Source of the DNA: an uncultured Planctomycetia bacterium
GTDB lineage: Bacteria; Omnitrophota; Gorgyraeia; Gorgyraeales; Gorgyraeaceae
Length of the DNA stretch: 64,000 bases
Direction: 5' to 3'
Assembly (NCBI GenBank): GCA_964566255.1
Contig: CAZMID010000001.1
Span: 83,152-147,151 of the forward strand
The notes under the pieces were generated by a model. The model worked only from the letters and a program-made list of their open reading frames with translations. It had not been told where the DNA came from and ran no database searches. Both the position numbers and the translations under genes were made by a program. Positions 10,182 through 44,426 of the stretch are shown here, piece by piece. Position 1 is the stretch's first letter; each line of letters starts with the position of its first letter.

Positions 10182-10190
10182 GGTGGGAAT

Positions 10191-10598: not shown

Positions 10599-10613
10599 AT
10601 CGAGTTCAGATTA

Positions 10614-11075
10614 TCACAGGCCTTTTATATTGTCAAGCAGCAAACCTTTGATTTTTTTTAAAGTCTCTTTTACCCCTTCACTTAAACCCTCCTGAAACTT
10701 ACTTGATGCAGGTTTTATACCTAATATATAAATTTCAGCATTTGTAGACGAGGCTAAGTACTCTATTAAAAGTTTTGGAGACACATCGTGCGTAGAAATC
10801 TTGCCTGTCCTCAGGTCTTCACTCTTAAAAAGTCTTATTTCCCCTGATTTTCCTTCAAACTCTACAGCATCTATTATAACAATAGTGTCTGGATTAAGTC
10901 TTTTTATAACACCTGTATAATTTTCAGGTGTAGTACCTGCATCTATAACCTCATATGGAACTTTATCCTTTATAGAGCTAGCTAAAAGAGGTCCTACTCC
11001 ATCATCACCTCTATCTATATTACCCAAACAAAGTAAAACTACTTTTCCTTTTAGGATATCTTTTAAATTTAACAT
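10614..11075 (-). CDS. hycI: Hydrogenase maturation endopeptidase (HycI/HyaD family)
   Basis: 153 aa; N-terminal VVLLCLGNIDRGDDGVGPLLA motif of Ni-dependent C-terminal-processing proteases; last gene of the hydrogenase operon. Confidence 0.8.
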   Translation of the reverse strand: MLNLKDILKGKVVLLCLGNIDRGDDGVGPLLASSIKDKVPYEVIDAGTTPENYTGVIKRLNPDTIVIIDAVEFEGKSGEIRLFKSEDLRTGKISTHDVSPKLLIEYLASSTNAEIYILGIKPASSKFQEGLSEGVKETLKKIKGLLLDNIKGL

Positions 11076-11091
11076 AAAAATTTCGGGAAAA

Positions 11092-11691
11092 TTATGTATT
11101 GAGTGTAATCTCTCTCCTACATTTCGGACAGAGCACTTTTATACGATCCTGGCGAGTAAGTTCATCGGATTTTTCAACTTTAAGGTGTGCTAATTTTAGG
11201 TCTTTTAATGCTGATAGATATGAAGTAGGGCTTGAATACGCAAGTGGCCCGAGCTTTTTTGAAATCCACTTTAAATGGTCTTTGGCGCCGACTATACATC
11301 CGCAGCCTTCGCACAAGAGAAGTTCCTTTTCAACAGACTCTATAGCTTCATTCCTATCAAATACAGCCAAATCAAATTTATCAGATAATTTTATGCCTTC
11401 TTGAGTAATACAGGCTGCCTGACACTGTCCGCAGAATATACAACTATCTAAATGTAAATCTAATTTTCTTAGAGGGATCTCAGCCTCTGGAATATCCTTA
11501 GTCTTTATGCAGCCTGGCGGACAAACTTCACTGCAGGCATTGCATCCTACGCAGCCATCTTTATCATATTCTGGTTTGCCCCTGAAGCTCTTCTCAGGCA
11601 CATGAGGCTTAAAAGGAAAACTCGATGTATAAGGTCCTTTAATAACCGCTGTTATTGCCTCAACTAATTCTCGTAATTTTGGATATCTCAT
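11092..11691 (-). CDS. NuoI/EchF/MbhN-like 2x[4Fe-4S] subunit with a C-terminal Cys-rich extension
   Basis: RGKPEYDKDGCVGCNACSEVCPPGC and CIFCGQCQAACI ferredoxin motifs, plus extra CEGCGC ... CPKC pairs. Confidence 0.65.
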   Translation of the reverse strand: MRYPKLRELVEAITAVIKGPYTSSFPFKPHVPEKSFRGKPEYDKDGCVGCNACSEVCPPGCIKTKDIPEAEIPLRKLDLHLDSCIFCGQCQAACITQEGIKLSDKFDLAVFDRNEAIESVEKELLLCEGCGCIVGAKDHLKWISKKLGPLAYSSPTSYLSALKDLKLAHLKVEKSDELTRQDRIKVLCPKCRREITLNT

Positions 11692-11696
11692 TTTAA

Positions 11697-12026
11697 TTAA
11701 TTCCCGTCTTCAGCGTATCTATCTACAACACTCTTATCCCACAGCTTCACATCTGACTTATGAGCGCCTCTTGCAAGGGCATGGGCTGAAACAGGAGAAG
11801 TTAATATCAAAAATAACATACAAACCATGGCCTTTATACCTAAGGCAGTAAATCCGTACATAAGAAAAACACCAAATAAAATACTACATGTCCCCAGAGT
11901 TATACACTTTGTAGCTGCCTGAAGTCGGTTATAGACATCTGGAAGTCTTACTAGACCCAGGCATCCCATAAAATCAAAGAAAAGCCCAATAGATATAAAA
12001 ATTATGGCTACTGTATCAATCATCAA
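11697..12026 (-). CDS. Mrp antiporter subunit G-like (MbhC-like)
   Basis: 109 aa; GLVRLPDVYNRLQAATKCITLG matches the MnhG signature. Confidence 0.65.
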   Translation of the reverse strand: MMIDTVAIIFISIGLFFDFMGCLGLVRLPDVYNRLQAATKCITLGTCSILFGVFLMYGFTALGIKAMVCMLFLILTSPVSAHALARGAHKSDVKLWDKSVVDRYAEDGN

Positions 12027-12390
12027 AAGCCTTCCCCTCTAAAAATTTGGCAAGTGCAAGCGTTGCTATAAAACTCTGAAGTGCCCAGGCAATTGCTATA
12101 TCAATATACCAGCTCCTCCCAGTAGAAATCCCCATGATAGCACAAAAACCAACAATTAAAATACCTAACATATCAATAGTAACAGCTCTATCTGCAGAAG
12201 TAGGACCTCTTAAAATCCTATATAGACATAATATGGAGGAAAATAAAAGTACAAAAAATGCCCTCTTCAAAAAACCTATAAAAGGTAAATCCTGACAGAA
12301 AAGAATCGGTATGGGCTTAAATAATATTATAGCCATAATAGCTATAATCACACCTACGCCTAACATATAACGAAATCTAGATCTTTTCAT
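12016..12390 (-). CDS. Mrp antiporter subunit F-like (MbhB-like)
   Basis: 124 aa; LRGPTSADRAVTIDMLGILIV matches the MnhF signature. Confidence 0.6.
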   Translation of the reverse strand: MKRSRFRYMLGVGVIIAIMAIILFKPIPILFCQDLPFIGFLKRAFFVLLFSSILCLYRILRGPTSADRAVTIDMLGILIVGFCAIMGISTGRSWYIDIAIAWALQSFIATLALAKFLEGKAFDD

Positions 12391-12884
12391 TATTCAAATA
12401 TCCTCTTTAAAATATTCTGAAATCTATCTACTATCAACTTTGTTGCCTTATCAATATCTTTATTTTTTACCTCGATCCAATGAATATATAAAACCCCTTC
12501 TTCCTTATCCACATCTACTGTCAATGTCCCAGGTGTAAGGGTAATAGAATTTGCTAAAAATGTGAGGGCTGTATCTGATTTTAAAGTGGTCTTTACCTTC
12601 ACTATGCCAGGGTGTATTGGTAAATCAGGATGAAGAACTCTATACGCTACATCAATATTTGCCTTAAAACACTCCCATATAAATATAGGTATATAATATA
12701 AAAACCACAAATATCTCTCAATATGCGTAAAAAGATGCGCCCTTTTTACAAAAAGGTCTCCTGTCATATGGGCGACAAAGGCTGAGACAAAAACACCTAC
12801 AACTATATGCTGCCAATCAGGCACCCAGTTCAACAAGCTCCAGACCAAAAATCCTAATAAAAATAACAAGATCTTACTTTTCAT
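12390..12884 (-). CDS. Mrp antiporter subunit E-like (MbhA-like)
   Basis: 164 aa; two N-terminal TM helices plus a soluble domain; size and position match MnhE. Confidence 0.55.
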   Translation of the reverse strand: MKSKILLFLLGFLVWSLLNWVPDWQHIVVGVFVSAFVAHMTGDLFVKRAHLFTHIERYLWFLYYIPIFIWECFKANIDVAYRVLHPDLPIHPGIVKVKTTLKSDTALTFLANSITLTPGTLTVDVDKEEGVLYIHWIEVKNKDIDKATKLIVDRFQNILKRIFE

Positions 12885-14380
12885 TTTATAGCTCCGAAAA
12901 TAACACCTGCATATTCTTTCCCGATCAATACTGCGTCTCTAGCAACTTTAAGAAAATCATCAGAAATCGCGGGCATTAAAAGAAGTCCACCTATTAAACA
13001 AATAAGTGCCAAAGTAATCATTGAAAACTTCATAAAAAACGGGACTTCCTTTATATGCTTTAAATTCTCTTTTAGCTCTCCGAAAAAGGCGAGCCTTTGG
13101 ACCTTCATAAAATATGCCAAAGTCAAGATACTCGCTACAACTGCCCAAACAGCATACGCAAAATGCTGTGCCTGGATACATGCGACTATGATAATCAATT
13201 TACTCCAGAAGCCATTAAAAGGCGGTACACCTGCAATAGCCATAGACCCTATAAGCGAGGTATTGGCTGTTATAGACATCTTCTCCCTAAGTCCACCCAA
13301 CTTGTCTAAATCCCTTATCCCTGTAGAATACTCCACTGCACCAGAATTCAAAAATAACAAAGACTTAAACACAGAATGATTTAATAGATGTAAAAGGCCT
13401 CCCATAATGCCAAGAGGTGTGCCTAAGCCAATCCCAAGTATAATATAACCAACCTGACTTATAGAGCTATAAGCCAAAAGTCTCTTAAAATCCTTTTGTC
13501 CAAGCGCAAGGCATACCCCTATAATCATCGACAAGGCCCCTAAGGCCATCAATGCACCCAAAATCTTTGGGTTTGGACCCAAGACACTAAAAAATATCCT
13601 TATCATTGCGTAGGCACCAAGGGATTTTATAAGAAGACCTGAAAGCATTGCTGAAATCGGCGCAGGCGCAGATGGATGTGCATCTGGAAGCCATGCATGA
13701 AAAGGAACAAGTGCTGTTTTTAACCCAAAACCCATGAGGAATAAAACGCTAACAAGTAATATTATACGAGGAGTCTCTCCTTTAGCTAATTCCAATGACA
13801 TATCAGCCATGTTCAAGGTAGAAGTAAAGCTATATAAAAACACTATCCCTAATAAAATAAATGAAGAGGCCAACGTCCCCATCACAGCATATTTAAAAGA
13901 CGCCTCAAGCTCTTCATGTTCTGTACCAAATGCAACTAATGCATAACTTGAAATAGCAGCTATCTCAAGGAATACATACAGATTAAACATGTCTCCAGAT
14001 ATCACAACCCCATTCATGCCAGCAATCATCAAAAGAAATAGGCAATAAAAATTCCATTTCTCAGTATATCTCTCCATATAATTTATAGAGTAAATGCTAA
14101 TCAAAAATGCGATTGTATTTATTACAACCAGCATAAATATAGTCAATCCATCCATAACCATTGAAATGCCTATAGGAGGTATCCATCCACCAACTTTATA
14201 TACGATAATGCCTATCTGTCTAAATAGGATCACAGAGTATACTGAAAGTGCTGCCAGAGAAAATGTGGCGATACCAGATAATATATCTGAAAAAGACTTT
14301 ATCTTTTTCCCAAGGAGCGAATTTAAAAACGCAGCCCCTAATGGTATAGCAACAAATAATGGCAATAGATTATGATTCAT
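12881..14380 (-). CDS. Mrp subunit D / NuoM-NuoN-like proton-pumping antiporter subunit
   Basis: 499 aa polytopic protein; conserved HAWLPDAH-type motif (FHAWLPDAHPSAP). Confidence 0.75.
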   Translation of the reverse strand: MNHNLLPLFVAIPLGAAFLNSLLGKKIKSFSDILSGIATFSLAALSVYSVILFRQIGIIVYKVGGWIPPIGISMVMDGLTIFMLVVINTIAFLISIYSINYMERYTEKWNFYCLFLLMIAGMNGVVISGDMFNLYVFLEIAAISSYALVAFGTEHEELEASFKYAVMGTLASSFILLGIVFLYSFTSTLNMADMSLELAKGETPRIILLVSVLFLMGFGLKTALVPFHAWLPDAHPSAPAPISAMLSGLLIKSLGAYAMIRIFFSVLGPNPKILGALMALGALSMIIGVCLALGQKDFKRLLAYSSISQVGYIILGIGLGTPLGIMGGLLHLLNHSVFKSLLFLNSGAVEYSTGIRDLDKLGGLREKMSITANTSLIGSMAIAGVPPFNGFWSKLIIIVACIQAQHFAYAVWAVVASILTLAYFMKVQRLAFFGELKENLKHIKEVPFFMKFSMITLALICLIGGLLLMPAISDDFLKVARDAVLIGKEYAGVIFGAIK

Positions 14381-14383
14381 AAA

Positions 14384-14722
14384 TCAACCTTTTAACTTAC
14401 GTATCTTTGTAATATCAAATGTCTTGTATTTTTCATAAACCCTTATAGCAATAGCTGCTATTAATGCAGTAACTGCAAGACCAATGACTATAGCAGTCAA
14501 AACAAGCGCCTGCGGCAAGGGATCCACCATATCAAGGACTAACTGGTCCTGGGAATGTATTGGAGAACGGCCATTCATCTTATAACCTACCAACACAAAA
14601 AAGAGATTCACTGCATATTCAACTATGGCTATACCTATAATAATCTTTATTAGGTTGCGCTTCCTAAGTATGCAATAAAGTCCTATAGAAAAAAGTACAA
14701 GGCATAGAAAATAAACACTCAT
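14384..14722 (-). CDS. Mrp subunit C / NuoK-like
   Basis: 112 aa; 3 TM helices; NuoK/MnhC-like. Confidence 0.6.
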   Translation of the reverse strand: MSVYFLCLVLFSIGLYCILRKRNLIKIIIGIAIVEYAVNLFFVLVGYKMNGRSPIHSQDQLVLDMVDPLPQALVLTAIVIGLAVTALIAAIAIRVYEKYKTFDITKIRKLKG

Positions 14723-15177
14723 TTTTTATCGCCATCCTTTTTATTTATCTTAAATAGTACGAGTATAACAAATATAATAAAAAGACCTGAAGCTACCTTA
14801 AGGCTTATCGCTATATTATATAAAGGAATAAGGCCTGAACTGAAAAGATTGAACGGTTCTCCCTTTGGCATAAAATTCAAAAAGAAATACCCAGTTAGAA
14901 TACCAAGAACTGCTAATGTAATAAAAATAAGTGCGCCCAAACTTTCAAACAAAGATGCAACATTTAAACTTACTTTTTTAAGTGCTACGTCTTTTCCAAA
15001 GGCAAGCATTATATGAATAAAAGAAAGCGCAACGATTACCCCTCCTGCAAAACCTCCACCAGGACTAACATGGCCATGTCCGATAATATAGATACCAAAC
15101 AGAAATATCAGCCCTACTGTTAAGCGTGTAATCGTCTTTACTATTAAACTCATTCCATTCTGGGCTTCTCTCATCAA
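14719..15177 (-). CDS. Mrp subunit B-like (MnhB domain)
   Basis: 152 aa; HGHVSPGGGFAGGV matches the MnhB signature. Confidence 0.65.
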   Translation of the reverse strand: MMREAQNGMSLIVKTITRLTVGLIFLFGIYIIGHGHVSPGGGFAGGVIVALSFIHIMLAFGKDVALKKVSLNVASLFESLGALIFITLAVLGILTGYFFLNFMPKGEPFNLFSSGLIPLYNIAISLKVASGLFIIFVILVLFKINKKDGDKK

Positions 15178-15695
15178 TCCTTCTTCCTTCCGACCCTTCT
15201 CATAACTGCTAAAACACCTATTGCAGCTGTAAACAATATGGTCGCCTCTCCTAATGTATCATATGCCCTATAATCTAAAACAACAGATGCAACTAAATTA
15301 GCTGAACCCGTCTTATCAAGGCCGTGGCTTAAAAAGTTCTGTGCTACTCTCATTATCGGCTCTCCAAATTGAGGCAGATCCTTCATGCAAAAATATCCAA
15401 AACCTAAAAATATAGCAAGGAATAAAAACGTTATAAACGTATTAAAAAACCATCTTCCGCTCGTAGAAAACGGTAGATCCCTTCTGATAGTAGCCCTTAT
15501 CAATATTATCACGCATAATATTTCGACCACGAGCTGAGCAATTGCTAAATCAGGTGCCTTGAGGATCAAAAACGCAAGTGATAGCCCAAGACCGGCTGTA
15601 CCCACTGCTATAACCGAGGAAAGTAGATCCTTTGATGCCACTGCGATTATTGCGCCTATAATTATAAATACTAGGAGTATCTGTAGTTCAAGCAT
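15174..15695 (-). CDS. Mrp-associated small membrane subunit (MbhD/E-like, DUF4040-type)
   Basis: 173 aa polytopic protein between the MrpA-like and MrpB-like genes. Confidence 0.45.
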   Translation of the reverse strand: MLELQILLVFIIIGAIIAVASKDLLSSVIAVGTAGLGLSLAFLILKAPDLAIAQLVVEILCVIILIRATIRRDLPFSTSGRWFFNTFITFLFLAIFLGFGYFCMKDLPQFGEPIMRVAQNFLSHGLDKTGSANLVASVVLDYRAYDTLGEATILFTAAIGVLAVMRRVGRKKD

Positions 15696-15702
15696 GCTTC
15701 AA

Positions 15703-17481
15703 TTACCTCACTATCGTAAAAAGAAATACTATCATCCCTAACAAACACCACACAAGATACGTCGGCAATATCCCATTGTGCAAATACTGGAATATACGGA
15801 TAAAGAAAAATACTATTCTTCTAGTTTGATCATAAATATCAAAGGCCTTTCTTTCGGCCCTTAAATAAAGTCCCTTTATTAATGGCATTTCTTTTATTGT
15901 GTTGTAAAATTCTGTACCTGAGAGCTTCATGTCTTTTGCAAGCTCTTCTCCTCCTATATAAGAATCAGTCTCTCTTACGCCCTTAAAATTACCCAATAAG
16001 TATATCAAGATTCCTACCAAAATCCCTATACCTAAGAATAACGTAGCCTGCGAAGATGGCCAGATACCAATAAACCTTAAACTACCTTGCAAGGCTGGGA
16101 TTATAAAATGCCTTAAAGGAATGTGATACGCAAATATCCCAAAGATAATACAAAGGCCTGCTAAGACTACAGGGCCAAGCCACATAGTCCACGATACTTC
16201 ATTTCGCTTTTCGTCTTTTGACTTACCTAAAAATATTGCATGCATAAATTTTATAAAGGATGCTAATGTTAGGGCGCTGCCAATGACAGCGGCTACTATG
16301 CAAAATATCCAAAGTGTACCACCTGATCTACCTTTTTCTATCAAGCCCTGATATACCATCCATTTTGAGAAAAATCCATTAAAAGGCGGAACGCCCGATA
16401 TAGATAAGGCTGCTATAAGCGCGGAGAAAAAACTTATTGGCATTACCTTTGCCAATCCGCCTAAAGAATCTAGATCTGATGTTTTAGACTTATATTGAAC
16501 ATTGCCCCCTGTAAGAAATAGGCAACATTTATATATTGCATTATTAAGCATATGAAAAAGTCCACCTGCAATACCTATGACACTTCCAGTGCCTAATCCA
16601 AGCACCATATAACCAACTTGACTTACTGCATGATAACCAAGAAGTTTTTTAAAATCATGCTGCACAAGCGCCATCATAACTGCTGCTACTATAGTAACAG
16701 CACCCACTACCATAAGAAGTGCATAAGTAAAATTATCCAATATAAAAATATTCAACACCAATCTTGCCAATAGATAAATACCAAGTAATTTATCAAGTGA
16801 GGCTGGTAAAAATGCAGTCACAGGTATATGGGCCTCTTTTGCTGTATCAGGTATCCATGTATGAAAAGGCATTGCACCTGCCTTTGCAAAAGCACCTATT
16901 GCTATCAATAAAAATGCCCAGAAGGACAAACTATTATTTATAGGTATCTCCAACTCGCTTAAACTTAAAGATCTTGTCATAAGCCATATAATCGCAAAAC
17001 CCAATATCATAAGACTGTCAGAGCCACCTATTATAATAAAGGTCTTTTTACTTATTGCAGCTGATCGAGGTCCTGCTACATTGATCAACATATAAAGCGT
17101 AAACCCTAAAAACCCCCATGCAACCAGAAGGATCATGATATTATTTGAAACTGCTGCTAAAATAGAAAAACCAATAGTCCATATAATATTAGCATAATAT
17201 GATCGTATTTCTTCACATGAAGCCATAAAACGTATTGAATATAAGCTAACTATCACCCCAAAGAACCCTACTCCCAGCACGATAAACCTGGAAAGACCAT
17301 CTACATATAAAAATTTTCCAAAGATTGGGGCCTGGATAAAGATTTTTATCGACGCTATAAAAAGGTATATGGCAGTGATAAGGCTGACGCCTTCTATTAC
17401 CTTCCTAAACTTCTTTGGAATAAGAAGGATAAAAGTCCCTATAATTATTGAAAGTATTATTGGTCTTAACAGTGTTTCCAT
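15703..17481 (-). CDS. MrpA / NuoL-like antiporter subunit (MbhH-like)
   Basis: 592 aa polytopic protein; MPFHTWIPDTAKEAHIPVTAF motif typical of the NuoL/MrpA family. Confidence 0.75.
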   Translation of the reverse strand: METLLRPIILSIIIGTFILLIPKKFRKVIEGVSLITAIYLFIASIKIFIQAPIFGKFLYVDGLSRFIVLGVGFFGVIVSLYSIRFMASCEEIRSYYANIIWTIGFSILAAVSNNIMILLVAWGFLGFTLYMLINVAGPRSAAISKKTFIIIGGSDSLMILGFAIIWLMTRSLSLSELEIPINNSLSFWAFLLIAIGAFAKAGAMPFHTWIPDTAKEAHIPVTAFLPASLDKLLGIYLLARLVLNIFILDNFTYALLMVVGAVTIVAAVMMALVQHDFKKLLGYHAVSQVGYMVLGLGTGSVIGIAGGLFHMLNNAIYKCCLFLTGGNVQYKSKTSDLDSLGGLAKVMPISFFSALIAALSISGVPPFNGFFSKWMVYQGLIEKGRSGGTLWIFCIVAAVIGSALTLASFIKFMHAIFLGKSKDEKRNEVSWTMWLGPVVLAGLCIIFGIFAYHIPLRHFIIPALQGSLRFIGIWPSSQATLFLGIGILVGILIYLLGNFKGVRETDSYIGGEELAKDMKLSGTEFYNTIKEMPLIKGLYLRAERKAFDIYDQTRRIVFFFIRIFQYLHNGILPTYLVWCLLGMIVFLFTIVR

Positions 17482-18653
17482 TTTCTTCTCAACTTTTCTG
17501 TTTTTTCCTGCGAAAGTCGTATTAGATCATGTCCATCCATAATCTTTCTACCATTATTACAATCTACAACTGCCATTCGTTCTGTACAACAGTAACACGG
17601 ATCCACTGCAGCTAAAATTATAGTAGCATCTGAAATGGTTTCACCTATTACAGCCTTTTTATTAGATGCGATATTCATGTAACTTGGAGCCCTTACCTTA
17701 TGCCTAGCAGGAGAATTGCTACCATCAGACATTATATAATGAAATACTTCTCCTCTTGGAGCTTCATGCCTACCAATGCCTTCTCCAACAGGCATATCCT
17801 TTATCTTTAAGTCGATTTCACCTTTTGGCATTGTATCAAGACACCTTAATATAATATTAGTAGATTCATAAAGTTCTAATATCCTTACAGCTGCCTTTGC
17901 AAAAACCCCTCCTCCTTCATTAGAAATCATCTTCCAGTCTATTTTATCGTATGCAGCATAAGGATCATCTTTTCTGACATCAATACCGACTCCTGAAGCC
18001 CTCGCTGTCGGACCCACAACAGAATAATCATGTACATCCTGTTTTGTTAATACTCCGACTCCTTTGGTCCTTGCATGTATCACAGGATCATCCATTACAG
18101 CACCCTTAAACATATCAAATTTAGGAATTAAATCTGTAAGGGTCTTTTTTATCCAGGGAATGTCTTCTTCTAAAATATCCCTTCTTACTCCACCTGGCTT
18201 AAACATAGCATAATGATTTCTATTTCCAGTAATTCTTTCAAATATATCAAGGACTGGTTCTCTATACCTCCATGCCCACATCCATACAGTATTATATCCT
18301 AAAAAGTGTCCTGCAAGGCCTAACCATAAAAGATGACTATGGACTCTTTCGAGCTCTCCTATTATTGTGCGGATATAAAGAGCTCTTTCAGGGACTTCAA
18401 CACCTAAAAGATCATCAATAGCATTTGTATAAGCAAAAGGGTGCGATGTAGAACAAATTCCACAGATCCTTTCAACTAAAAATGTTACTTGATCATAACT
18501 TTTGGATTCGGCTATTTTTTCAATAGCCCTATGATTATAGCCGATTTCAATATCTATATCGACGACAGTCTCACCATCTACGTGAAGCCTAAAAAATTCC
18601 GGCTCTTCCTGTAATGGATGATAAGGTCCTATTGGAATAATTTTATGTGCCAT
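17466..18653 (-). CDS. Group-4 [NiFe]-hydrogenase large subunit (NuoD-like, MbhL/EchE-type)
   Basis: N-terminal RICGICSTSH and C-terminal DPCYCCTER Ni-Fe ligand motifs, followed by a ~35-aa C-terminal extension (substrate for the HycI protease). Confidence 0.85.
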   Translation of the reverse strand: MAHKIIPIGPYHPLQEEPEFFRLHVDGETVVDIDIEIGYNHRAIEKIAESKSYDQVTFLVERICGICSTSHPFAYTNAIDDLLGVEVPERALYIRTIIGELERVHSHLLWLGLAGHFLGYNTVWMWAWRYREPVLDIFERITGNRNHYAMFKPGGVRRDILEEDIPWIKKTLTDLIPKFDMFKGAVMDDPVIHARTKGVGVLTKQDVHDYSVVGPTARASGVGIDVRKDDPYAAYDKIDWKMISNEGGGVFAKAAVRILELYESTNIILRCLDTMPKGEIDLKIKDMPVGEGIGRHEAPRGEVFHYIMSDGSNSPARHKVRAPSYMNIASNKKAVIGETISDATIILAAVDPCYCCTERMAVVDCNNGRKIMDGHDLIRLSQEKTEKLRRKWKHC

Positions 18654-18657
18654 AATA

Positions 18658-19092
18658 TTATTGATCTCTCCTCAAAGGAAAATTACCTTCAGGCCAATCG
18701 TCTTTTAAAAGTAAATGCTTTGGATTTGGGTGGCCTCTAAATTTTACACCCAGAAGTTCGCGTATCTCCATTTCTATCCATTCTGCGCATTTCATTATAG
18801 AAGTAAGGCTATCTATTTCAAGGTTTGATTTGTCCAGAATAACCTTTAATGTAACTATAAGTCCGATATCATCTATTGAAAAGTGATAAAGTATCTCAAC
18901 TGCTTCTCTTGTATCCACTCCGGATGCTATTGAAAATCGTGCCTTTCTTTCATTAAAAAGATATCTCACTATTTTAGGAAGTATTTCTTTCTTAATCGTA
19001 ACATAAACCCTTCTTTTGGATTTATCTATAAGTTCCAGCATGTCTTTGCCGGCACGGACTTTTATATTTTCTATTATCTCTCGCCTCTTCAT
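18658..19092 (-). CDS. NuoC-like hydrogenase subunit (MbhK-like)
   Basis: 144 aa; lies between the large and small subunits as in Mbh/Ech operons. Confidence 0.55.
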   Translation of the reverse strand: MKRREIIENIKVRAGKDMLELIDKSKRRVYVTIKKEILPKIVRYLFNERKARFSIASGVDTREAVEILYHFSIDDIGLIVTLKVILDKSNLEIDSLTSIMKCAEWIEMEIRELLGVKFRGHPNPKHLLLKDDWPEGNFPLRRDQ

Positions 19093-19514
19093 TTATTCCC
19101 TCTTAATTTACCAATCAACTTCACTATACCTAGTATCATTGCCTCTGGTTTTGGCGGGCAACCTGGTATATAAACATTTACCGGAAGAATAGAATCTACA
19201 GGATTTGGCGTATTTGGTCCATTTGCAAACATACCCTGACCACAAGAGCACGCTCCTATCGCAATAACAACGCATGGCTTTGGGGCCTGATCATAGATAG
19301 CCTTTACCCTAGGTATTGTCTTAAGGTTTAAGGCACCTGTTACAAGTATTGCATCAGCATGCTTTATGCTACCAACAAGCATTATCCCGAATCTTTCCAC
19401 GTCGAATCTCGGAGTCAGAAGATCCAGGATTTCTATATCGCAATTATTGCAACTACCTGTTGAAAGGTGGTAAACCCAGATAGATTTTGTTAATGCTTTT
19501 AATTTTAAGCTCAT
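19089..19514 (-). CDS. [NiFe]-hydrogenase small subunit (NuoB-like, MbhJ-type)
   Basis: 141 aa; CNNCDIE ... GACSCGQG ... GCPPKPE are the cysteines of the proximal [4Fe-4S] cluster. Confidence 0.8.
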   Translation of the reverse strand: MSLKLKALTKSIWVYHLSTGSCNNCDIEILDLLTPRFDVERFGIMLVGSIKHADAILVTGALNLKTIPRVKAIYDQAPKPCVVIAIGACSCGQGMFANGPNTPNPVDSILPVNVYIPGCPPKPEAMILGIVKLIGKLRGNK

Positions 19515-20416
19515 TACATGCCTCGCACTGCAAGAAATACTGCAATTACAGCTATTAAAGTCATTTTTCCCCAGAAAAATCTCATTGCCTGATCAACCCT
19601 AACCCTGGGATTCGTATTCCTCATTAAAATTATTACAACTAAAAGTACTACGTATTTCCATATACTAAATCCGCCCCAAAATACCGTAATTAAAAATAGA
19701 GGAAGTGCTACCATCATCATTGTCTTTGTAAGTTTAAATATAGCAAGTAAAATCCCTGAATACTCTATATGAGTACCTGCCATTATCTCTGTCTCTGCCT
19801 CTCCTGCATCAAAAGGTACAAGCCCTAACTTTGCCTGCATACAGAATATTGCAACTAATATGGAAAGAATTCCTGACAAACTTGATATAAATGCCCCATT
19901 CATTGCCTGATAAGTAAGTAATTCATGCAACCTTAAAAGTCCATTACTTTTTATAATAGGTACAGTTAATACTAGAATAAAAGGTAATTCATAAGAAAGC
20001 ATAAGCTTTATCTCTCTTGATAGGCCAACCGATGCCAAAGGATTACCGCTGGCTGATGCACCTAACATAAGAGAAATCGCTGGTAATGTCAATAAATACA
20101 AAATAACTATTAAATCTCCCCTAAAACCACTTGGCATTACCTCTATATTAGATAGCCACAGAAAAGTTGAAGCCAATATTACAGCACTAAGTCCTATAAA
20201 AGGCGAAGCCATAAAAAGTGTCTTTGAGGAAGACTTTGGAATAGTGATTTCCTTTATGCTTAATTTTACTAAATCTATAAGAGGCTGGTACCAAGGTGGA
20301 CCTACCCTCCACTGTACGCGGGCCGTAACCTTACGATCTATCCAGCTTGCGACCAAACCGACAGCTGCTGTAAAAATAAATCCAGGAAATATTAAAAAAT
20401 TAAATAATAGTTTCAT
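19514..20416 (-). CDS. NuoH-like membrane subunit (MbhM/HycD-type)
   Basis: 300 aa with about 8 TM helices; position matches Mbh/Ech operons. Confidence 0.7.
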   Translation of the reverse strand: MKLLFNFLIFPGFIFTAAVGLVASWIDRKVTARVQWRVGPPWYQPLIDLVKLSIKEITIPKSSSKTLFMASPFIGLSAVILASTFLWLSNIEVMPSGFRGDLIVILYLLTLPAISLMLGASASGNPLASVGLSREIKLMLSYELPFILVLTVPIIKSNGLLRLHELLTYQAMNGAFISSLSGILSILVAIFCMQAKLGLVPFDAGEAETEIMAGTHIEYSGILLAIFKLTKTMMMVALPLFLITVFWGGFSIWKYVVLLVVIILMRNTNPRVRVDQAMRFFWGKMTLIAVIAVFLAVRGM

Positions 20417-20898
20417 TATGGGTGATATTTCTTCCAGGGTTTTGCATGGACTGCAATATTTTTACCTATTAAAAATATATCGTCCTTTTCTGATTCATCT
20501 ACTTCGGTAAATTTCACTGCATCTTTTATGGAACAACTCTTTACACATACAGGTACTTCTTTTTTACTCCTATCTATACAAACATCGCACTGGGAAGTAA
20601 TATAAGGTACTGTCTCAATAGGGATTGTACCAAAAGGGCACGACATACTACAAGATTTACAAGATATACATCTCATTGTATAACGCTTTATCGTACCATC
20701 ATCTTGTTTTTCCAGTGCGTCTTTAGGACAACTCGTTACACAGGGTGCCTCTTCGCACTTCCTGCAGATATGTAAAAATTGTGCTATTTCTCTTAAGCGG
20801 GTTATGCCTGAATTCCCAGGACGGTAATAATAACTGCAATCTGCCTTTACCTCTTCACAGCTATATAATTTTTCAAGATCTATAAATAAACGTTTCAT
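20416..20898 (-). CDS. 4Fe-4S poly-ferredoxin (HycB-like electron-transfer subunit)
   Basis: 160 aa with four CxxC-type cysteine clusters (CRKCEEAPCVTSCP, CISCKSCSMSCP, CDVCIDR ... CVKSC). Confidence 0.65.
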   Translation of the reverse strand: MKRLFIDLEKLYSCEEVKADCSYYYRPGNSGITRLREIAQFLHICRKCEEAPCVTSCPKDALEKQDDGTIKRYTMRCISCKSCSMSCPFGTIPIETVPYITSQCDVCIDRSKKEVPVCVKSCSIKDAVKFTEVDESEKDDIFLIGKNIAVHAKPWKKYHP

Positions 20899-20900
20899 AC

Positions 20901-21725
20901 CTAGTCCCAGATTTCGTGAATGTTATTTATTTTATCATACCTAAATACAGGACCGTCTTTACATACATAAAAATTTCCGATCCTACAGTGGCCACATTTA
21001 CCTACGCCGCAACTCATATTCTTTTCCATTGATAGATAGATTTGATTTTCTTTATATCCTACCTCAAGTAATTTAAAGGTTGAAAATTTCATCATTATTG
21101 GCGGGCCGCATACAATTGCTACACTATTTTTTAGATGAAGGTGTAAATTATCAAGTGTTGTGGTCACAAGACCAACTTTTCCTTTCCAACTATCATCTTT
21201 TTTATCAACTGTAACCCTAAAATCTACCTTTTTATCTATCTTCTGCCATTTATCTAAAACACTATCCTTAAATATAATATCTGATGGTGTCTTCGAGCCA
21301 CAGCAGAATAATATACTTTTATATTTATCTATATCGTGAACTAATGCCAAAAATAACGCCCTTAATGGTGCGAGCCCTACTCCTCCTCCTACAAGTAAAA
21401 TCTCTTTACCTTCAAACTCAGTTAGAGGATATTCATTACCATATGGGCCTCTTAATCCTACTATATCTCCTTTTTTTAAATCATGTATTCTAGAGGTAAC
21501 TAAACCTACTTTCATGATGCTGATTTCTATTTTACTCTTTTGATAAGGAGAAGATGATGGCGTAAATGGCGCTTCTCCTACACCAGGAATAGTCATTTCC
21601 ATAAACTGGCCTGCCTTAAAATGCATTGGCTTATCAGGTTTAAGAGAAAACGTCTTTATAGTAGGACTCTCACTGCATACATCCAGGACCTCTGCTTTTG
21701 TAGGTATATAAGGATTTTCTATCAT
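20901..21725 (-). CDS. FAD/NAD(P)-binding oxidoreductase subunit with C-terminal [2Fe-2S] (HydG/AsrB/PyrK-like)
   Basis: 274 aa; ferredoxin-reductase-type fold motifs; C-terminal CGVGKCGHCRIGNFYVC 2Fe-2S motif. Confidence 0.7.
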   Translation of the reverse strand: MIENPYIPTKAEVLDVCSESPTIKTFSLKPDKPMHFKAGQFMEMTIPGVGEAPFTPSSSPYQKSKIEISIMKVGLVTSRIHDLKKGDIVGLRGPYGNEYPLTEFEGKEILLVGGGVGLAPLRALFLALVHDIDKYKSILFCCGSKTPSDIIFKDSVLDKWQKIDKKVDFRVTVDKKDDSWKGKVGLVTTTLDNLHLHLKNSVAIVCGPPIMMKFSTFKLLEVGYKENQIYLSMEKNMSCGVGKCGHCRIGNFYVCKDGPVFRYDKINNIHEIWD

Positions 21726-22741
21726 AATTTACTAAGGACCTCATCGATGCGTATCTTGCCAGGACAGGCTTCACTGCACCTTCCGCAGCCAGTACAGCCA
21801 AATCTTCCGATCGTATCTGGGAAAAAATTAAATTTTTTATCAAAACGGTTTCTTATTCGCTCTGCTAAAAGTTTTCTTGGATTTGCATTGCCTGCAACTC
21901 TTGCGAAAGAAAGTAAAAGACAAGAATCCCACAGCCTCAACCTTTCAAACCCTCCTTCTTTAGCCTGATCCTTTAAGATAAAACAGTGACAAGCAGGACA
22001 TATTACATTACAAGCACCACACTCGACACACGTTTTGACAGTCTCTTCCCATAACTTTGAATCAAACTTCTTCTTAAAAAGGTTCTGAACTTTAGAAGCA
22101 TCTGGTATATTTTTCTTTTTTGTATGCTTTGCGATTTCTTCTTCTAATTTTTTCCTATGCGTTTCCTTTTTTTCAATATAAAGATCTGCATTCTGGAATA
22201 ATTTAAAATACTCTTTTACTATTTTTTCTCCTTTTTCTGAACCTATTTCTGCAACGTAACCACTTTCTATCTCTGAAAGATTTATATCAAACCCTTCTTT
22301 TGGATATGGCATTATACCCAAAGCTACACAAAAACAAGTATCTTTATAACAAGTGCAATCACTTGAAATTATAAGACTCTCTTCTCTTCGGGAAATATAA
22401 GATGGATCCTTAAAAGAATCTTGACTAAAGACATAATCCATCACCTTTAATGAAGCCAAATCACACGACTTGGCGCCTATTATAGCTACAGGTCTTATCT
22501 TTTTATCGGAAATCTTCTCAGAAAAGTAATCTGCTACTTTTGTCCTGGCGAGAAAATAGAAACTCTTTATAGATTGTACTGGTCTTACCTCGCCTATGAC
22601 AGCATCTTCAAGCCCTTTATCTCCAACACGTTTATACTGTAAATTATCGTCGGATTTTACAGGGGCATAAACCCTGTGTGTCTTAAAAAGGGACTTGGCG
22701 AGTCTGTCAAGATTTGGTCGATTTATAAAATACGTGTCCAA
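21722..22741 (-). CDS. Iron-sulfur subunit (HydB/AsrA-like)
   Basis: 339 aa; CVECGACNVICPACHC and CTGCGRCSEACPG motifs; 4-nt overlap with the HydG-like gene; apparent TTG start. Confidence 0.65.
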   Translation of the reverse strand: MDTYFINRPNLDRLAKSLFKTHRVYAPVKSDDNLQYKRVGDKGLEDAVIGEVRPVQSIKSFYFLARTKVADYFSEKISDKKIRPVAIIGAKSCDLASLKVMDYVFSQDSFKDPSYISRREESLIISSDCTCYKDTCFCVALGIMPYPKEGFDINLSEIESGYVAEIGSEKGEKIVKEYFKLFQNADLYIEKKETHRKKLEEEIAKHTKKKNIPDASKVQNLFKKKFDSKLWEETVKTCVECGACNVICPACHCFILKDQAKEGGFERLRLWDSCLLLSFARVAGNANPRKLLAERIRNRFDKKFNFFPDTIGRFGCTGCGRCSEACPGKIRIDEVLSKL

Positions 22742-22760
22742 AGAAGTGACTTTCTAGAAG

Positions 22761-22780
22761 TTTGTGAAAATTATCACAAA
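22761..22780. promoter_or_regulatory. Perfect CRP/FNR-family palindrome TTTGTGA-N6-TCACAAA in the 5' UTR of the hydrogenase operon
   Basis: TGTGA at 22763-22767, a 6-nt spacer, TCACA at 22774-22778, with 7-bp perfect arms; it lies between the predicted -10 and the first gene start. Confidence 0.45.
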
Positions 22781-22794
22781 GTTTGTAAAATAAA

Positions 22795-22823
22795 AAAGCA
22801 ACCACTATTCAACAACTATAATA
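22795..22823 (-). promoter_or_regulatory. Sigma70-type promoter TTGACA-N17-TATAGT for the HydB/G-Mbh-Mrp operon
   Basis: Reverse complement of 22818-22823 is TTGACA and of 22795-22800 is TATAGT, with a 17-nt spacer. Confidence 0.5.
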
Positions 22824-22851
22824 CAAAGCCTTTTTTGTGTCAAGAGAAAAA

Positions 22852-23271
22852 TTAAAAATGTAGCTCCATTGCTCGCGGCGGACAGGCCTTTATGCATAAT
22901 TCGCAAGCAATACACTTGTCATTATGAAAAAGTACTTTTTGTGTTTTAGGATCTATTATTAATGCCTCTGTTGGGCATATAGGAACGCATGCCCCGCAAT
23001 GAGTACACTTCTCTTCATCCCTCTTTATATCCTTAGAAAGTGGTTGAACCGCAAGACCTAAGGATTTGGCATACTTTAGAGCCTTATCAAAATTCTTATC
23101 CTCACCTTTAAGTTCAAGGACCAAAAGCCCTTCTTCCTTTGGAGTGACATGTGCCTTTAATATATTAAACTCCAAGTCATAATCCTTCACCATCTTATAG
23201 ATTATAGGTTGATCTACGAGTCTATGGGGAAATTTTAAAACAATTCGTTCGCATTTCATTTTAACCTCCAA
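22852..23271 (-). CDS. NIL-domain / 4Fe-4S ferredoxin fusion protein
   Basis: 139 aa; N-terminal NIL-like domain (as in the MetN C-terminus); C-terminal CTHCGACVPICP and CIACELCIKACP motifs. Confidence 0.6.
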   Translation of the reverse strand: MEVKMKCERIVLKFPHRLVDQPIIYKMVKDYDLEFNILKAHVTPKEEGLLVLELKGEDKNFDKALKYAKSLGLAVQPLSKDIKRDEEKCTHCGACVPICPTEALIIDPKTQKVLFHNDKCIACELCIKACPPRAMELHF

Positions 23272-23998
23272 CTAATTCTATATCTCCTAAAACACCAAAA
23301 TCCTTTTTATAGATTATAAGGGCTCCTTTTACACCTTTTATATTAAGGGCCCACTTGAGACTAGGTTTAATATCTTCTTTTCTCTTTACTCTATTACTCG
23401 TTGCAGTTGCAACTGCATCTGCTAAAATCGTAGATTTAGATATTATAACACAGGCGTCTGCTTTTCCAAAGCTTAAAGAATGCCCTATTGTACCAGATGA
23501 CGTACATATACCAAGAGGTGTATCTTCTGATTTTATCTTTATAAAAAGCTTATTTGTAAGAGGTGAATCACCTGCGTATATCGCTACAGTCCTATCGATA
23601 TCGGATTTTATAAATATATCGCCTCCATTTTCAATTATAACCTCTTTAGTAGTAGATAAAAGATCTTTTCCTACAAATTCTGATATTGCTCCTGCAACAC
23701 TTGCCATTGGTCCGACCTCGGCTTGAGTAGATTTAATCATCATATCCTTTATAATACTAGGTGCATTTTGATCTAAAGGTAATGACTTGAGGCTCGTCTT
23801 AAAATCAGGGTGAATTTTAATATAATTTTCTATTTCACATCTATATTTTTCTATTAATTCCTTGGCAATATTTTTTACATCCTTTTTAGCATAGATAAAA
23901 ATATCCGTTTCATTAACAGTAACTTCTTGAGGAATAAGATCATCTGAAGCTATCCATTTTCTATAAAATCTTTCTTGGTAATCTTTGCTCTTAGCCAT
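23261..23998 (-). CDS. UPF0280 / ApbE-like family protein
   Basis: 245 aa; GPMASVAGA and GICTSSGTIGHS motifs resemble the ApbE-related UPF0280 family. Confidence 0.45.
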   Translation of the reverse strand: MAKSKDYQERFYRKWIASDDLIPQEVTVNETDIFIYAKKDVKNIAKELIEKYRCEIENYIKIHPDFKTSLKSLPLDQNAPSIIKDMMIKSTQAEVGPMASVAGAISEFVGKDLLSTTKEVIIENGGDIFIKSDIDRTVAIYAGDSPLTNKLFIKIKSEDTPLGICTSSGTIGHSLSFGKADACVIISKSTILADAVATATSNRVKRKEDIKPSLKWALNIKGVKGALIIYKKDFGVLGDIELVGG

Positions 23999-24000
23999 AA

Positions 24001-24345
24001 TTATTCGATCTCTATTGAAGCAACTGATATGCCTTTACCTTCGATCAAGTCATTTATATTGCTTTTACACTTAGGACATCCCCCAAGACCGGTTTCAACT
24101 TGAAATTCATAACTACAGTTCTTACATTTAAACTTAGCTTCTACTTTTTCAAAGTTAAGTTCTGCCTTTTCAAGAGAAGTTCCTTTTGCACGCTCTCTAA
24201 AATGAAATTCAAAATGTTCTGAACTTATTCCTTCTAATTCACCTATAAGTATATTTATCTTTTTAACCTTTGAATTAAGCTTTTCTTCTTTTAACTTAGC
24301 ATTTATAACACAAAGTATATCATCTACCATGCCTATTTCATGCAT
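24001..24345 (-). CDS. hypA: Hydrogenase nickel-incorporation protein HypA
   Basis: 114 aa; starts MHEIGM; zinc motifs CKNCSYEF and CPKCKS. Confidence 0.85.
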   Translation of the reverse strand: MHEIGMVDDILCVINAKLKEEKLNSKVKKINILIGELEGISSEHFEFHFRERAKGTSLEKAELNFEKVEAKFKCKNCSYEFQVETGLGGCPKCKSNINDLIEGKGISVASIEIE

Positions 24346-24357
24346 ATCTGTCTCCTT

Positions 24358-25356
24358 CTAACATATCCTTGGTAATTGTTCACCCCTTGCCATATCTAAA
24401 ATCCTTGATCCACCTATTTCAGTCTTTAAATAAACCTTTCTATCTTTTTTTCTTTCAATTTCACCTATAATTTGACTATTTTTACCTAAAGGGTGTTTTT
24501 TCATTCTAGATAAGACTTTTGAGGCAGCACTTTTTGAAACTATAACTACTACCTTACCTTCATTTGCCATATATAAAGGATCAAACCCTAATATCTCACA
24601 TAATGCCTTTACTGACTCTTTTATAGGTACTTTTGATTCATCTATACCTATATTATAGCCTGAAGCCATACTAATCTCATTTAATGTGGTAGCAAGGCCC
24701 CCTCTAGTAGGATCCCTCATAAACTTTATATCCTTAGATATAATAGACGATATAAGGCTATTTAAAGGGGCGCAATCACTAAGAATTCTTGATTTAAATC
24801 TAAGATCCTCCCTTGCAAGTAAAATACTTGATGCATGATCTCCTACAGTACCGCTTATAATAACCTTATCTGTCGGACTTATCCGGTCAATTGAGATCCT
24901 GGCATCCTTAATGATTTCTCCTACCCCGGAGGTATTTATAAAAATCTTATCTATGGAACCTTTTTCAACAACCTTAAAATCTCCTGCAACTATATTTACA
25001 CCTGCTTTTTTAGAAGCTAATTTTATAGAAAGAGTTATTTTTTCTAAATCTTTATAAAGAAATCCTTCTTCTACGATCATCCCGCATGATATATACTTAG
25101 GTCTTGCACCAGATACAGATAAATCATTAACTGTACCGCAAATAGAAAGCTTTCCTATGTCTCCTCCAGGAAAAAATATAGGATTAATAACAAAAGAATC
25201 CGTTGTATAGGCAAATTTTTTACTTTTAGTATCAATAAGTGCAGAATCTCCTAACTTTTTTAAAAAAGGATTGTCTAAATGCTTTAAAAATAAATCCTTT
25301 ATTAAATCATGCATCAGACTTCCGCCGCTTCCATGGGATAAGGTTATCTTTTTCAT
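24358..25356 (-). CDS. hypE: Hydrogenase maturation factor HypE
   Basis: 332 aa; AIR-synthase-related fold; ends with the conserved PRIC. Confidence 0.85.
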   Translation of the reverse strand: MKKITLSHGSGGSLMHDLIKDLFLKHLDNPFLKKLGDSALIDTKSKKFAYTTDSFVINPIFFPGGDIGKLSICGTVNDLSVSGARPKYISCGMIVEEGFLYKDLEKITLSIKLASKKAGVNIVAGDFKVVEKGSIDKIFINTSGVGEIIKDARISIDRISPTDKVIISGTVGDHASSILLAREDLRFKSRILSDCAPLNSLISSIISKDIKFMRDPTRGGLATTLNEISMASGYNIGIDESKVPIKESVKALCEILGFDPLYMANEGKVVVIVSKSAASKVLSRMKKHPLGKNSQIIGEIERKKDRKVYLKTEIGGSRILDMARGEQLPRIC

Positions 25357-26441: not shown

Positions 26442-26647
26442 AGGACATCCTTTAACATCTGAAGGGTCTCTTGTGCCTTTTTAGGACTTATTTTTTCTAT
26501 GGCAAAACCCGCATGGACAACTACATAATCTCCTATTTTTGGATTAGTTAAAAAATTAATGGCAATCTTGCGCTGTATATTTGCTGCAGATACTATTGCC
26601 CTATCACCTTCTATCTTTAAAATCTTCATTGGTATTCCTAAACACAT
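26438..26647 (-). CDS. hypC: Hydrogenase maturation factor HypC
   Basis: The true start is the internal MCLGIP (HypC always begins MC(L/A)(G/A)IP), preceded by a GAGGT SD; the ORF track's upstream extension is not used; 69 aa. Confidence 0.8.
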   Translation of the reverse strand: MCLGIPMKILKIEGDRAIVSAANIQRKIAINFLTNPKIGDYVVVHAGFAIEKISPKKAQETLQMLKDVL

Positions 26648-26657
26648 ATCTATTACC

Positions 26658-40340: not shown

Positions 40341-44425
<4,085 letters not shown>

Positions 44426-44426
44426 A

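Follow-up and report, generated by a model that had tools for sequence, protein, structure and literature searches.

A 16-subunit membrane hydrogenase encoded by the genes hunA-P was named 'Hun' by Glass et al. 2021 (bioRxiv 10.1101/536078), who reported it from Atribacteria, Omnitrophica, Elusimicrobia, Bacteroidetes and Kosmotoga isolates. In the published complex, HunA and HunB are like AsrA and AsrB but come without AsrC, HunC is a ferredoxin, HunD-G are like NuoH, NuoB, NuoC and NuoD, HunH-O are Mrp-like and HunP is NuoI-like; the large subunit HunG belongs to HydDB group 4g (a label that is the literature's) and carries the unusual motif pair CGIC-CYCC (10.1101/536078). Here we analyse such an operon in a window of 64,000 nucleotides, the whole stretch taken from contig CAZMID010000001.1 of an uncultured Omnitrophota bacterium, and consider what its redox partner may be.

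The architecture is not a new discovery. It was already known from 2019 and 2020, before Hun received its name, with earlier sightings in Saganbacteria (nearest sequences in Zixibacteria and Omnitrophica) and in Elusimicrobia, where it was called the 'Mbh-Mrp-oxidoreductase type'; Mrp-linked hydrogenases of Omnitrophota have also been put in group 4g by the literature, the flavoprotein not being commented on. Within the literature searched, the name 'Hun' is used by the original paper of Glass et al. only, and searches on Kosmotoga and Atribacter laminatus returned no functional Hun data. What is new here is a Rex operator together with linkage of rex to the operon, a wiring of the HycB/HycF type that includes a cysteine quartet, and the strict conservation of the cofactor motifs of HunB. 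Because these motifs are invariant or nearly so in 77 sequences, and because a Rex operator lies in the hunA promoter while rex itself is linked to hunA, we favour, with modest preference, reduced nicotinamide adenine dinucleotide or its phosphate, NAD(P)H, as the predicted redox partner of Hun. The fuller picture, of Hun as a Rex-controlled, ion-translocating NAD(P)H:H+ oxidoreductase, a sort of 'complex I that reduces protons' with a non-homologous NAD(P)H module of the sulfhydrogenase type placed on a connector like that of formate hydrogenlyase (FHL), is proposed more tentatively, with slightly less than even confidence.

The operon is a minus-strand row of 17 tightly packed genes running from 22741 to 10614 of the window (list of open reading frames, ORFs; Pfam and NCBIfam matches). 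All genes listed for this interval by the first-pass annotation, which had been made from the letters and their ORFs, were found again, as follows (aa, amino acids).

hunA, 21722..22741, minus strand: HydB/AsrA-like Fe-S protein of 339 aa, TTG start, 16 Cys (15 invariant); Pfam Fer4_22 4.6e-29
hunB, 20901..21725, minus strand: HydG/AsrB-like flavoprotein of 274 aa; Pfam FAD_binding_6, NAD_binding_1 and a [2Fe-2S] domain (DHODB_Fe-S)
hunC, 20416..20898, minus strand: HycB/CooF-like multi-cluster ferredoxin of 160 aa; Pfam Fer4_11; 14 Cys, first cluster motif degenerate
hunD, 19514..20416, minus strand: NuoH/MbhM/HycD-like membrane anchor; Pfam NADHdh 3.1e-59; 8 transmembrane-like segments
hunE, 19089..19514, minus strand: NuoB-like hydrogenase small subunit; Pfam Oxidored_q6 4.9e-27; cluster Cys conserved
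hunF, 18658..19092, minus strand: NuoC-like subunit; Pfam Complex1_30kDa 6e-24
hunG, 17466..18653, minus strand: [NiFe] large subunit; Pfam Complex1_49kDa and NiFeSe_Hases
hunH, 15703..17481, minus strand: NuoL/MrpA-like antiporter subunit of 592 aa; Pfam Proton_antipo_M 3e-52; end-to-end alignment with NuoL models
hunI, 15174..15695, minus strand: MbhD and MbhE domains; Pfam MbhD 6.4e-16, MbhE 9.3e-11
hunJ, 14719..15177, minus strand: MnhB/MrpB-like; Pfam MnhB 1.1e-23
hunK, 14384..14722, minus strand: MrpC/NuoK-like; Pfam Oxidored_q2 4.8e-28
hunL, 12881..14380, minus strand: MrpD/NuoM/N-like antiporter subunit; Pfam Proton_antipo_M 1.6e-68
hunM, 12390..12884, minus strand: MrpE-like; Pfam MNHE 8e-46
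hunN, 12016..12390, minus strand: MrpF-like; Pfam MrpF_PhaF 5.4e-17
hunO, 11697..12026, minus strand: MrpG-like; Pfam PhaG_MnhG_YufB 2.9e-25
hunP, 11092..11691, minus strand: HycF/NuoI-like 2x[4Fe-4S] ferredoxin of 199 aa, C-terminal Cys quartet C127, C130, C188, C191
hycI, 10614..11075, minus strand: [NiFe] large-subunit maturation endopeptidase; Pfam HycI 4.5e-19; TIGR00142 112.8 bits; TIGR00072 104.7 bits (cutoff 47.45)

The 16 hun gene types and their order (AsrA-like, AsrB-like, ferredoxin, NuoH, NuoB, NuoC, NuoD, eight Mrp-like, NuoI-like) are identical to those of the published hunA-P, and the CGIC...CYCC pair, the lack of AsrC and the Mrp-like module are shared as well. Judged by this gene content, the window operon is the already described Hun membrane hydrogenase, hunA-P plus hycI, of an Omnitrophota bacterium. 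Its flanks set it apart from the published operon: in this lineage a block of hyp, UPF0280 and NIL-ferredoxin genes precedes hun, and hycI and a bifunctional-nuclease (BFN) gene follow it. Some other Hun reports (certain metagenome-assembled genomes, Saganbacteria) describe a molybdopterin subunit between hunB and hunC; it is absent from the window and from all 80 related loci, where the largest gap at this place measures 348 nt. These loci came from a scan of one genome per GTDB species with a HunA alignment, and onto them the window proteins were then mapped. The 339-aa window HunA has an identical copy on a Joint Genome Institute (JGI) metagenome contig, and its nearest named relatives are all from Omnitrophota.

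Adjacent hun genes overlap or are separated by at most 16 nt (junctions of -16 to +16 nt), and the junctions from hunA to hunD are overlapping or leave 2 nt. Terminator-like and promoter-like signals were not more numerous than in shuffled sequence, and none lies inside the intergenic gaps of the operon. By simple hydropathy, HunA, B, C, E, F, G and P make up a soluble arm and the remaining subunits a membrane arm. The complex would be made of three parts, namely a catalytic core of NuoB/C/D/H/I-like subunits, an Mrp-like ion-translocating membrane arm and a peripheral electron-input module arranged as in FHL, with the contacts between subunits predicted by homology.

The head module is where the case for NAD(P)H begins. 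HunA aligns over nearly its full length with the beta subunit of sulfhydrogenase I (SHI) of Pyrococcus furiosus (9nez_B, 2.7e-40) and HunB with the gamma subunit (9nez_C, 3.3e-57), the two pairs sharing their Cys motifs, the motifs for flavin adenine dinucleotide (FAD) and NAD(P), and the [2Fe-2S] site. SHI (group 3b, 9NEZ), unlike Hun, is soluble and forms a heterotetramer that includes alpha and delta subunits of group 3b; neither a large nor a small group-3 subunit of this kind (alpha or delta) is encoded in the operon, and a soluble group-3b sulfhydrogenase was ruled out for that reason. At least 76 of 77 HunB homologues from several phyla keep each of the FAD site GEAPFTPSS, the loop GGGxGxAP for the nucleotide, CGPP and the four [2Fe-2S] cysteines (CGxGKCGHC...C), which would be hard to explain if the domain were a mere scaffold. 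Position 145 is K or R in all 77 and is matched in the alignment by an Arg of SHI gamma, a subunit that depends on NADPH. Characterised relatives of HunB (SHI gamma, PyrK, NfnA, AsrB) exchange hydride with NAD(P)(H). We also count this basic residue, the compact hunA-hunD junctions and the near full-length alignments to SHI beta and gamma as points in favour of the NAD(P)H reading.

The first-pass annotation had described this pair as HydB/HydG (AsrA/AsrB)-like. The likeness holds, both in profiles and in alignments, while membership in these families does not. The best NCBIfam match of HunA is ShyB (180 bits, under cutoff); the sulfhydrogenase-family scores of 180 and 198 bits compare with equivalog cutoffs of 600-750 for HydB/HydG and ShyB/ShyC. 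HunB matches AsrB best (242.9 bits against a cutoff of 288.6), and HunA reaches 129 bits with AsrA, for which the cutoff is 323. As they score under the equivalog cutoffs of HydB/G, ShyB/C and AsrA/B alike, HunA and HunB constitute a sister family and not members of those families. The catalytic AsrC of the Salmonella-type AsrAB(C) system is absent here: no AsrC or siroheme (NIR_SIR) protein was found among the annotated ORFs of at least 150 aa in the 64-kb window, a scan outside of which the RND-type transporter ORF at 7035-10181 and the giant ORF at 50206-63807 lay. An Asr-type sulfite reductase was ruled out on these two grounds, the missing AsrC and the scores under cutoff, and the expectation that the head pair is not part of a separate sulfite-reductase system held up among the scanned ORFs. 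As a side observation, the TTG start of hunA recurs in a number of close relatives (loci L005, L007, L010, L011, L014), while other relatives have ATG at the aligned position.

The second line of evidence comes from the 110-nt gap upstream of hunA, in which two elements are found.

Promoter-like site, 22815..22843, minus strand: -35 TTGACA, 17-nt spacer, -10 TATAGT; 11/12
Rex-operator-like palindrome TTGTGATAATTTTCACAA, 22762..22779, minus strand: 13/14 specified bases of the consensus TTGTGAANNNNTTCACAA

The first is the top sigma-70-like match in the scanned region 9800-27500 (17.7 kb). Promoter-like matches overall were no more common than in shuffles (68 vs 70.7), hence the hunA promoter call rests on its position and on footprinting. 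For the latter, the upstream DNA of the window was aligned with that of 8 related Omnitrophota loci (9 in total) whose flanks have otherwise diverged, and the sole invariant blocks were CTTGACA, TTTGTATTATA and TTTGTGAT..TTTTCACAA. The first two are the promoter and the third is the Rex-operator-like site, which sits between the -10 element and the start codon of hunA. The claim that a single operon follows one promoter holds.

When one mismatch to the Rex operator consensus TTGTGAANNNNTTCACAA (PMC6391272, PMC5317091) is allowed, the palindrome is the sole occurrence in the 64 kb, where 0.14 would be expected. Exact Rex sites occur 21 times in 24.4 kb of hunA-upstream DNA of related loci and once in 1.17 Mb elsewhere, an enrichment of about 1000-fold. 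Moreover, among the 73 loci with enough upstream sequence, rex lies directly upstream of hunA and on the same strand in 26, including loci of Atribacterota, and another 15 have a Rex box without rex. We predict that Rex binds at 22762-22779; the operon would be transcribed from the single promoter upstream of hunA, and the operator in its 5' leader would release transcription at a high NADH/NAD+ ratio. The text of Glass et al. mentions neither Rex nor NAD(P)H (10.1101/536078).

A separate matter is the way in which electrons might travel from the head module to the hydrogenase core. The first-pass annotation had named HunC a polyferredoxin; more precisely, it is a 160-aa ferredoxin of the HycB/CooF type with 14 Cys, and its best solved relative is HycB of FHL (7z0s_B, 1.2e-13). 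The NuoI-like HunP does have the Cys-rich tail that was ascribed to it; this tail is not an extra, since it corresponds to the known Cys quartet of HycF, with C127/C130/C188/C191 of HunP aligning with C117/C120/C155/C158 of HycF. Among solved proteins, HunP is closest to HycF (7z0s_F, 7.4e-20) and then to MbhN (5.1e-15). In the FHL structure the HycF quartet holds a single metal ion beside HycB and the formate dehydrogenase, at the interface of the input module (PMC9474812), and the electron route leads from FdhF through HycB, HycF and HycG to HycE. By homology, Hun may possess the same connector as FHL with FdhF swapped for HunAB.

The comparison with the FHL of Escherichia coli (group 4a, 7Z0S) extends further, as FHL also has a HycI protease and a C-terminal extension of its large subunit, and HycE and MbhL are equally near to HunG. 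Where Hun would have HunAB, FHL has the molybdopterin formate dehydrogenase FdhF; the hun operon encodes no molybdopterin protein. The membrane arm of FHL consists of HycC and HycD only, with no full Mrp set. The membrane-bound hydrogenase (MBH) of P. furiosus (group 4d, 6CFW) shares with Hun the NuoB/C/D/H/I-like core, the Mrp-like subunits and the MbhD and MbhE domains, and for both complexes a coupling between H2 turnover and ion translocation is presumed. MBH differs in having 14 subunits (MbhA-N) and no input module like HunABC, ferredoxin being taken directly; besides, HunP is nearer to HycF than to MbhN, and the mbh operon begins with its Mrp-like genes, whereas in hun the hydrogenase genes come before them. 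The earlier label 'Mbh/Mrp-type' was right about the Mrp set and about group 4, but imprecise as to Mbh, the operon being Hun-type with an FHL-like input arm.

That the core is a group-4 [NiFe] hydrogenase accompanied by an Mrp set, as had been proposed, is well supported. The best solved relatives of HunG are MbhL (5.3e-87, 295 bits) and HycE (5.3e-85, 289 bits), which are thus equidistant, and the membrane subunits give Mrp-like Pfam matches. The NiFe ligand motifs are where they were said to be present, with L1 (RICGIC) at residue 64 and L2 (DPCYCC) at residue 351, followed by a C-terminal extension of 36 residues; across 55 homologues, conservation of the two motif blocks reaches 98% or more. 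Other traits of group 4 were found too: the large subunit is NuoD-like and has two CxxC pairs, the small subunit is NuoB-like and has one cluster, and the partners are NuoC-, NuoH- and NuoI-like. So was a maturation set, made of the large-subunit extension, HycI, and hypA/C/D/E with a HypF C-terminal-domain protein directly upstream; the 36-residue tail of HunG looks like the type of substrate that HycI cleaves. These four NiFe cysteines, hycI and the hyp genes indicate a hydrogenase and not an MBS-like sulfur reductase.

HunG was also searched against 1.84 billion cluster representatives at 50% identity, and the 150 best were examined for the L2 motif. Two representatives stand out with 513-534 bits and 57-58% identity; after them, the best full-length match has 400 bits at 47%, and CYCC is present in just 4 of the 150. 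This break in scores and the rarity of CYCC mark HunG as a distinct clade within group 4. The nearest non-identical cluster (P0121, 583 aa, 57% identity) has the length of a NuoC-NuoD fusion and CYSC replacing CYCC at L2.

The NAD(P)H reading can be put in the form of a route. Electrons of NAD(P)H would enter at the FAD and [2Fe-2S] cluster of HunB, pass through the [4Fe-4S] clusters of HunA, HunC, HunP and HunE to the NiFe site of HunG, and there reduce protons to H2, the turnover being coupled through HunD and the Mrp-like subunits to movement of H+ or Na+; ferredoxin may still enter at HunP or HunC. We infer from the sequences NAD(P)H as the substrate, and equally the direction of the reaction and the ion species. 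A functional analogy is respiratory complex I, in which a pyridine-nucleotide dehydrogenase module likewise feeds a NuoB/C/D/H/I core with antiporter-like subunits, and a 'dehydrogenase-linked MBX' of Desulfurococcaceae has been proposed as an NADPH-linked membrane complex for Thermosphaera aggregans. Hun differs from both in that its input is of the HydBG/AsrAB type, not NuoEFG and not of the SudA/GltD type, and in that the acceptor is H+ at the NiFe site and not quinone.

The order of genes is widely maintained, as the comparison with Omnitrophota and other genomes called for by the first-pass annotation made clear. In 74 of 77 loci hunB comes immediately after hunA, and of the 49 loci whose downstream DNA reaches 7 kb or more, 45, spread over six or more phyla, have hunB-hunG after hunA in the same orientation. 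Carriers include Omnitrophota, Aegiribacteria/Fermentibacteria, Spirochaetota, Atribacterota and Sumerlaeota; the Omnitrophota fall into two tiers of HunA identity (69-79% and 45-51%), and among Atribacterota one locus (L074) has hunA-H in the order of the window at 46-66% identity while another (L062) has hunA. The four exceptions among these 49 are of different kinds. Two loci (L036, L072) have runs of N just downstream, that is, assembly gaps, and in one (L066) hunB-hunE alone are seen despite about 9 kb of downstream sequence.

A genuinely different complex is found in the Latescibacterota loci L049 (9245-18120), which is the fourth exception, and L034. Their order is rex, a HunA-like gene, MrpE, a pyridine-nucleotide-disulfide oxidoreductase (Pyr_redox_2), then MrpF, G, B, C, D and D; within the locus there is no HunB and no hydrogenase subunit, and a Rex-box-like site stands upstream of the hunA-like gene. 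Here too the HunA-type protein is accompanied by a flavoprotein for NAD(P)H, next to rex, and we count this variant in favour of NAD(P)H. Rearrangements of another sort occur in Spirochaetota and relatives (L033, L063, L083), where hunA-G are directly followed by hunP and hycI and the Mrp-like genes lie upstream, divergently transcribed, and in L081, where hunP is located between hunG and hunD.

The thermodynamics are less favourable to NAD(P)H as the donor. We calculated them from standard potentials. The reaction from NAD(P)H to H2 costs +18 kJ/mol at 1 atm H2, is close to zero at 100-1000 Pa and yields -10 to -16 kJ/mol at 1 Pa (NADH at 1:1, NADPH at 10:1); moving one ion against 150 mV costs 14.5 kJ/mol. 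With the H2 levels found in the environment, the NAD(P)H/H2 couple is close to equilibrium, which should make the enzyme reversible: ion export would be possible at about 1 Pa H2 or less only, and at higher H2 the ion gradient would be drawn on to vent NAD(P)H as H2. Ferredoxin, for comparison, releases 24-39 kJ/mol when its electrons are passed to H2 at 10 Pa.

A number of points therefore have to be set against NAD(P)H as the redox partner. The reaction is endergonic above roughly 100-1000 Pa and pays for about one ion per H2 at best at 1 Pa, and the energy yield of ferredoxin is the main physical argument for the readings in which ferredoxin takes part. Glass et al., the sole paper naming Hun, predicted ferredoxin as the donor, acting through HunABC (10.1101/536078). 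The basic residue at position 145 of HunB does not seem decisive for NADH versus NADPH specificity. Concerning regulation, 32 of the 73 loci have neither rex nor a Rex box, and no rex gene is present in the 64-kb window. In addition, C. bescii has a membrane [NiFe] hydrogenase that depends on ferredoxin and is likewise repressed by Rex; since ferredoxin-dependent hydrogenases can be under Rex control, a Rex site does not identify the substrate. Finally, the literature searched holds no biochemical or structural study of any Hun complex, and no solved relative is closer than MBH, FHL and SHI.

The alternative that withstands these comparisons best, although we regard it as unlikely, is that Hun is driven by ferredoxin only, HunABC being an Fe-S wire to the NiFe site, H2 evolution driving export of H+ or Na+, and HunB having no role with pyridine nucleotides. 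This is the proposal of Glass et al. (10.1101/536078), and it agrees with the listing of group 4g by HydDB as putatively ferredoxin-coupled, with the homology of HunP to the ferredoxin-accepting MbhN and with the 24-39 kJ/mol mentioned above, easily enough for ion pumping; Rex control poses no obstacle, as it is also seen for the ferredoxin-dependent Ech. What it leaves unexplained is, on one hand, why HunB should keep its FAD motif, GGGxGxAP, CGPP and its [2Fe-2S] ligands invariant or nearly so across 77 sequences from several phyla, and on the other hand, why three extra subunits are needed at all when Mbh accepts ferredoxin directly at its NuoI-like subunit. The hydride exchange with NAD(P)(H) that is established for the characterised relatives of HunB speaks against it as well.

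An improbable compromise, even if its two versions are taken jointly, is a branched enzyme that oxidises ferredoxin entering at HunP or HunC and delivers electrons to protons at HunG in one branch and to NAD(P)+ at HunB in the other. It might work as an Rnf-like ion-pumping ferredoxin:NAD(P)+ oxidoreductase with H2 as overflow, or as a combiner of ferredoxin and NAD(P)H that does not bifurcate at a flavin. Such an arrangement would accommodate both the HycF/MbhN-like HunP, a ferredoxin-type entry, and the intact NAD(P) module; the step from ferredoxin to NAD+ is worth 19-35 kJ/mol by calculation, the related Mbx complex was at one time suggested to produce NADPH, and control by Rex would fit an enzyme that sets the NADH/NAD+ ratio. 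The role would, however, be redundant, because Omnitrophota with reported group-4g Mrp-linked hydrogenases also encode Rnf, and there is no sign of a bifurcating flavin, FAD of the HydG/NfnA type not being known to serve as that site.

A sulfur-linked enzyme, with HunAB as a sulfur/polysulfide reductase or as part of an Asr-type sulfite reductase to which the hydrogenase gives electrons or from which it takes them, is very improbable: HunA and HunB do match AsrA/AsrB and sulfhydrogenase beta/gamma models, and UPF0280 and NIL-ferredoxin genes, relatives of which we presume to be linked to sulfide handling in methanogens, lie just upstream of hunA, yet neither the operon nor the scanned ORFs of the window encode an AsrC or siroheme protein, the scores remain under the AsrA/AsrB and HydB/HydG equivalog cutoffs, and HunG keeps all four NiFe cysteines, with hycI in the operon and hyp genes adjacent.

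The surroundings of the operon may be described briefly. Upstream of hunA lies the accessory block already referred to.

Upstream accessory block, 22852..27761, minus strand: HypF C-terminal (Kae1-like) protein, hypC, hypD, hypE, hypA, UPF0280 protein, NIL + 2x[4Fe-4S] ferredoxin (Pfam)

Most of the closest Omnitrophota loci likewise have this hyp/UPF0280/NIL-ferredoxin block ahead of hunA. The UPF0280 protein (22852-23998, minus strand, together with the NIL ferredoxin) scores 285.8 bits with NCBIfam PRK04334 (cutoff 271) and is ApbE-like by Pfam PF27030; the pair stands between hypA and hunA in most of these loci (69-79% HunA identity), a position that suggests a role in maturation or cofactor supply for Hun. 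The only HypF-like gene of the hyp cluster (26658-27761, minus strand) encodes 367 aa with the HypF_C and HypF_C_2 (Kae1-like) domains alone, lacking the acylphosphatase, zinc-finger and YrdC parts, and the same short form is seen in locus L001.

On the other side, 15 nt after hycI, a gene with a BFN domain (10191-10598, minus strand) converges on the gene for the RND-type transporter and may share the hun transcript. Further away in the window, an F-type ATP synthase row (40341-48453, minus strand) encodes c, a b/delta fusion, alpha, gamma ... beta, no a-subunit gene being seen upstream of c; between gamma and beta it is interrupted by a PAS protein (44427-45164) and an 895-aa Cache/HAMP/PAS histidine kinase (41738-44425). 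Its c subunit was considered as an indicator of Na+ specificity and set aside as not conclusive: the ion-site region reads FAEAIAV, without the E-S/T pattern which we take to be characteristic of Na+-binding c subunits. A giant ORF (50206-63807, minus strand, GTG start) encodes 4533 aa, highly repetitive and rich in T, S, G and N, with internal repeats of about 390 aa, and ends in Ig-like-looking repeats followed by a coiled low-complexity tail.

As a genomic observation, the operon is one further copy of a published architecture. Group-4g hydrogenases are nonetheless widespread in uncultured anaerobes (Omnitrophota, Atribacterota, Fermentibacterota, Spirochaetota), and the Rex operator with the rex-hunA linkage provides a concrete regulatory handle that can be tested, while Kosmotoga isolates, as reported hun carriers, make the biochemistry feasible. 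If NAD(P)H is indeed the redox partner, Hun would become the first case in which an energy-converting [NiFe] hydrogenase is shown to link the NAD(P)H/H2 pair directly to an ion gradient, and it would represent a second, independent pyridine-nucleotide module grafted on the ancestral hydrogenase/Mrp scaffold that stands behind complex I. Fermenters among Omnitrophota and Atribacterota would then vent NAD(P)H as H2 at a cost in membrane potential, or with a gain at very low H2, and models of redox balance and energy conservation in such organisms would have to change, as NAD(P)H and H2 would be linked across an ion gradient.

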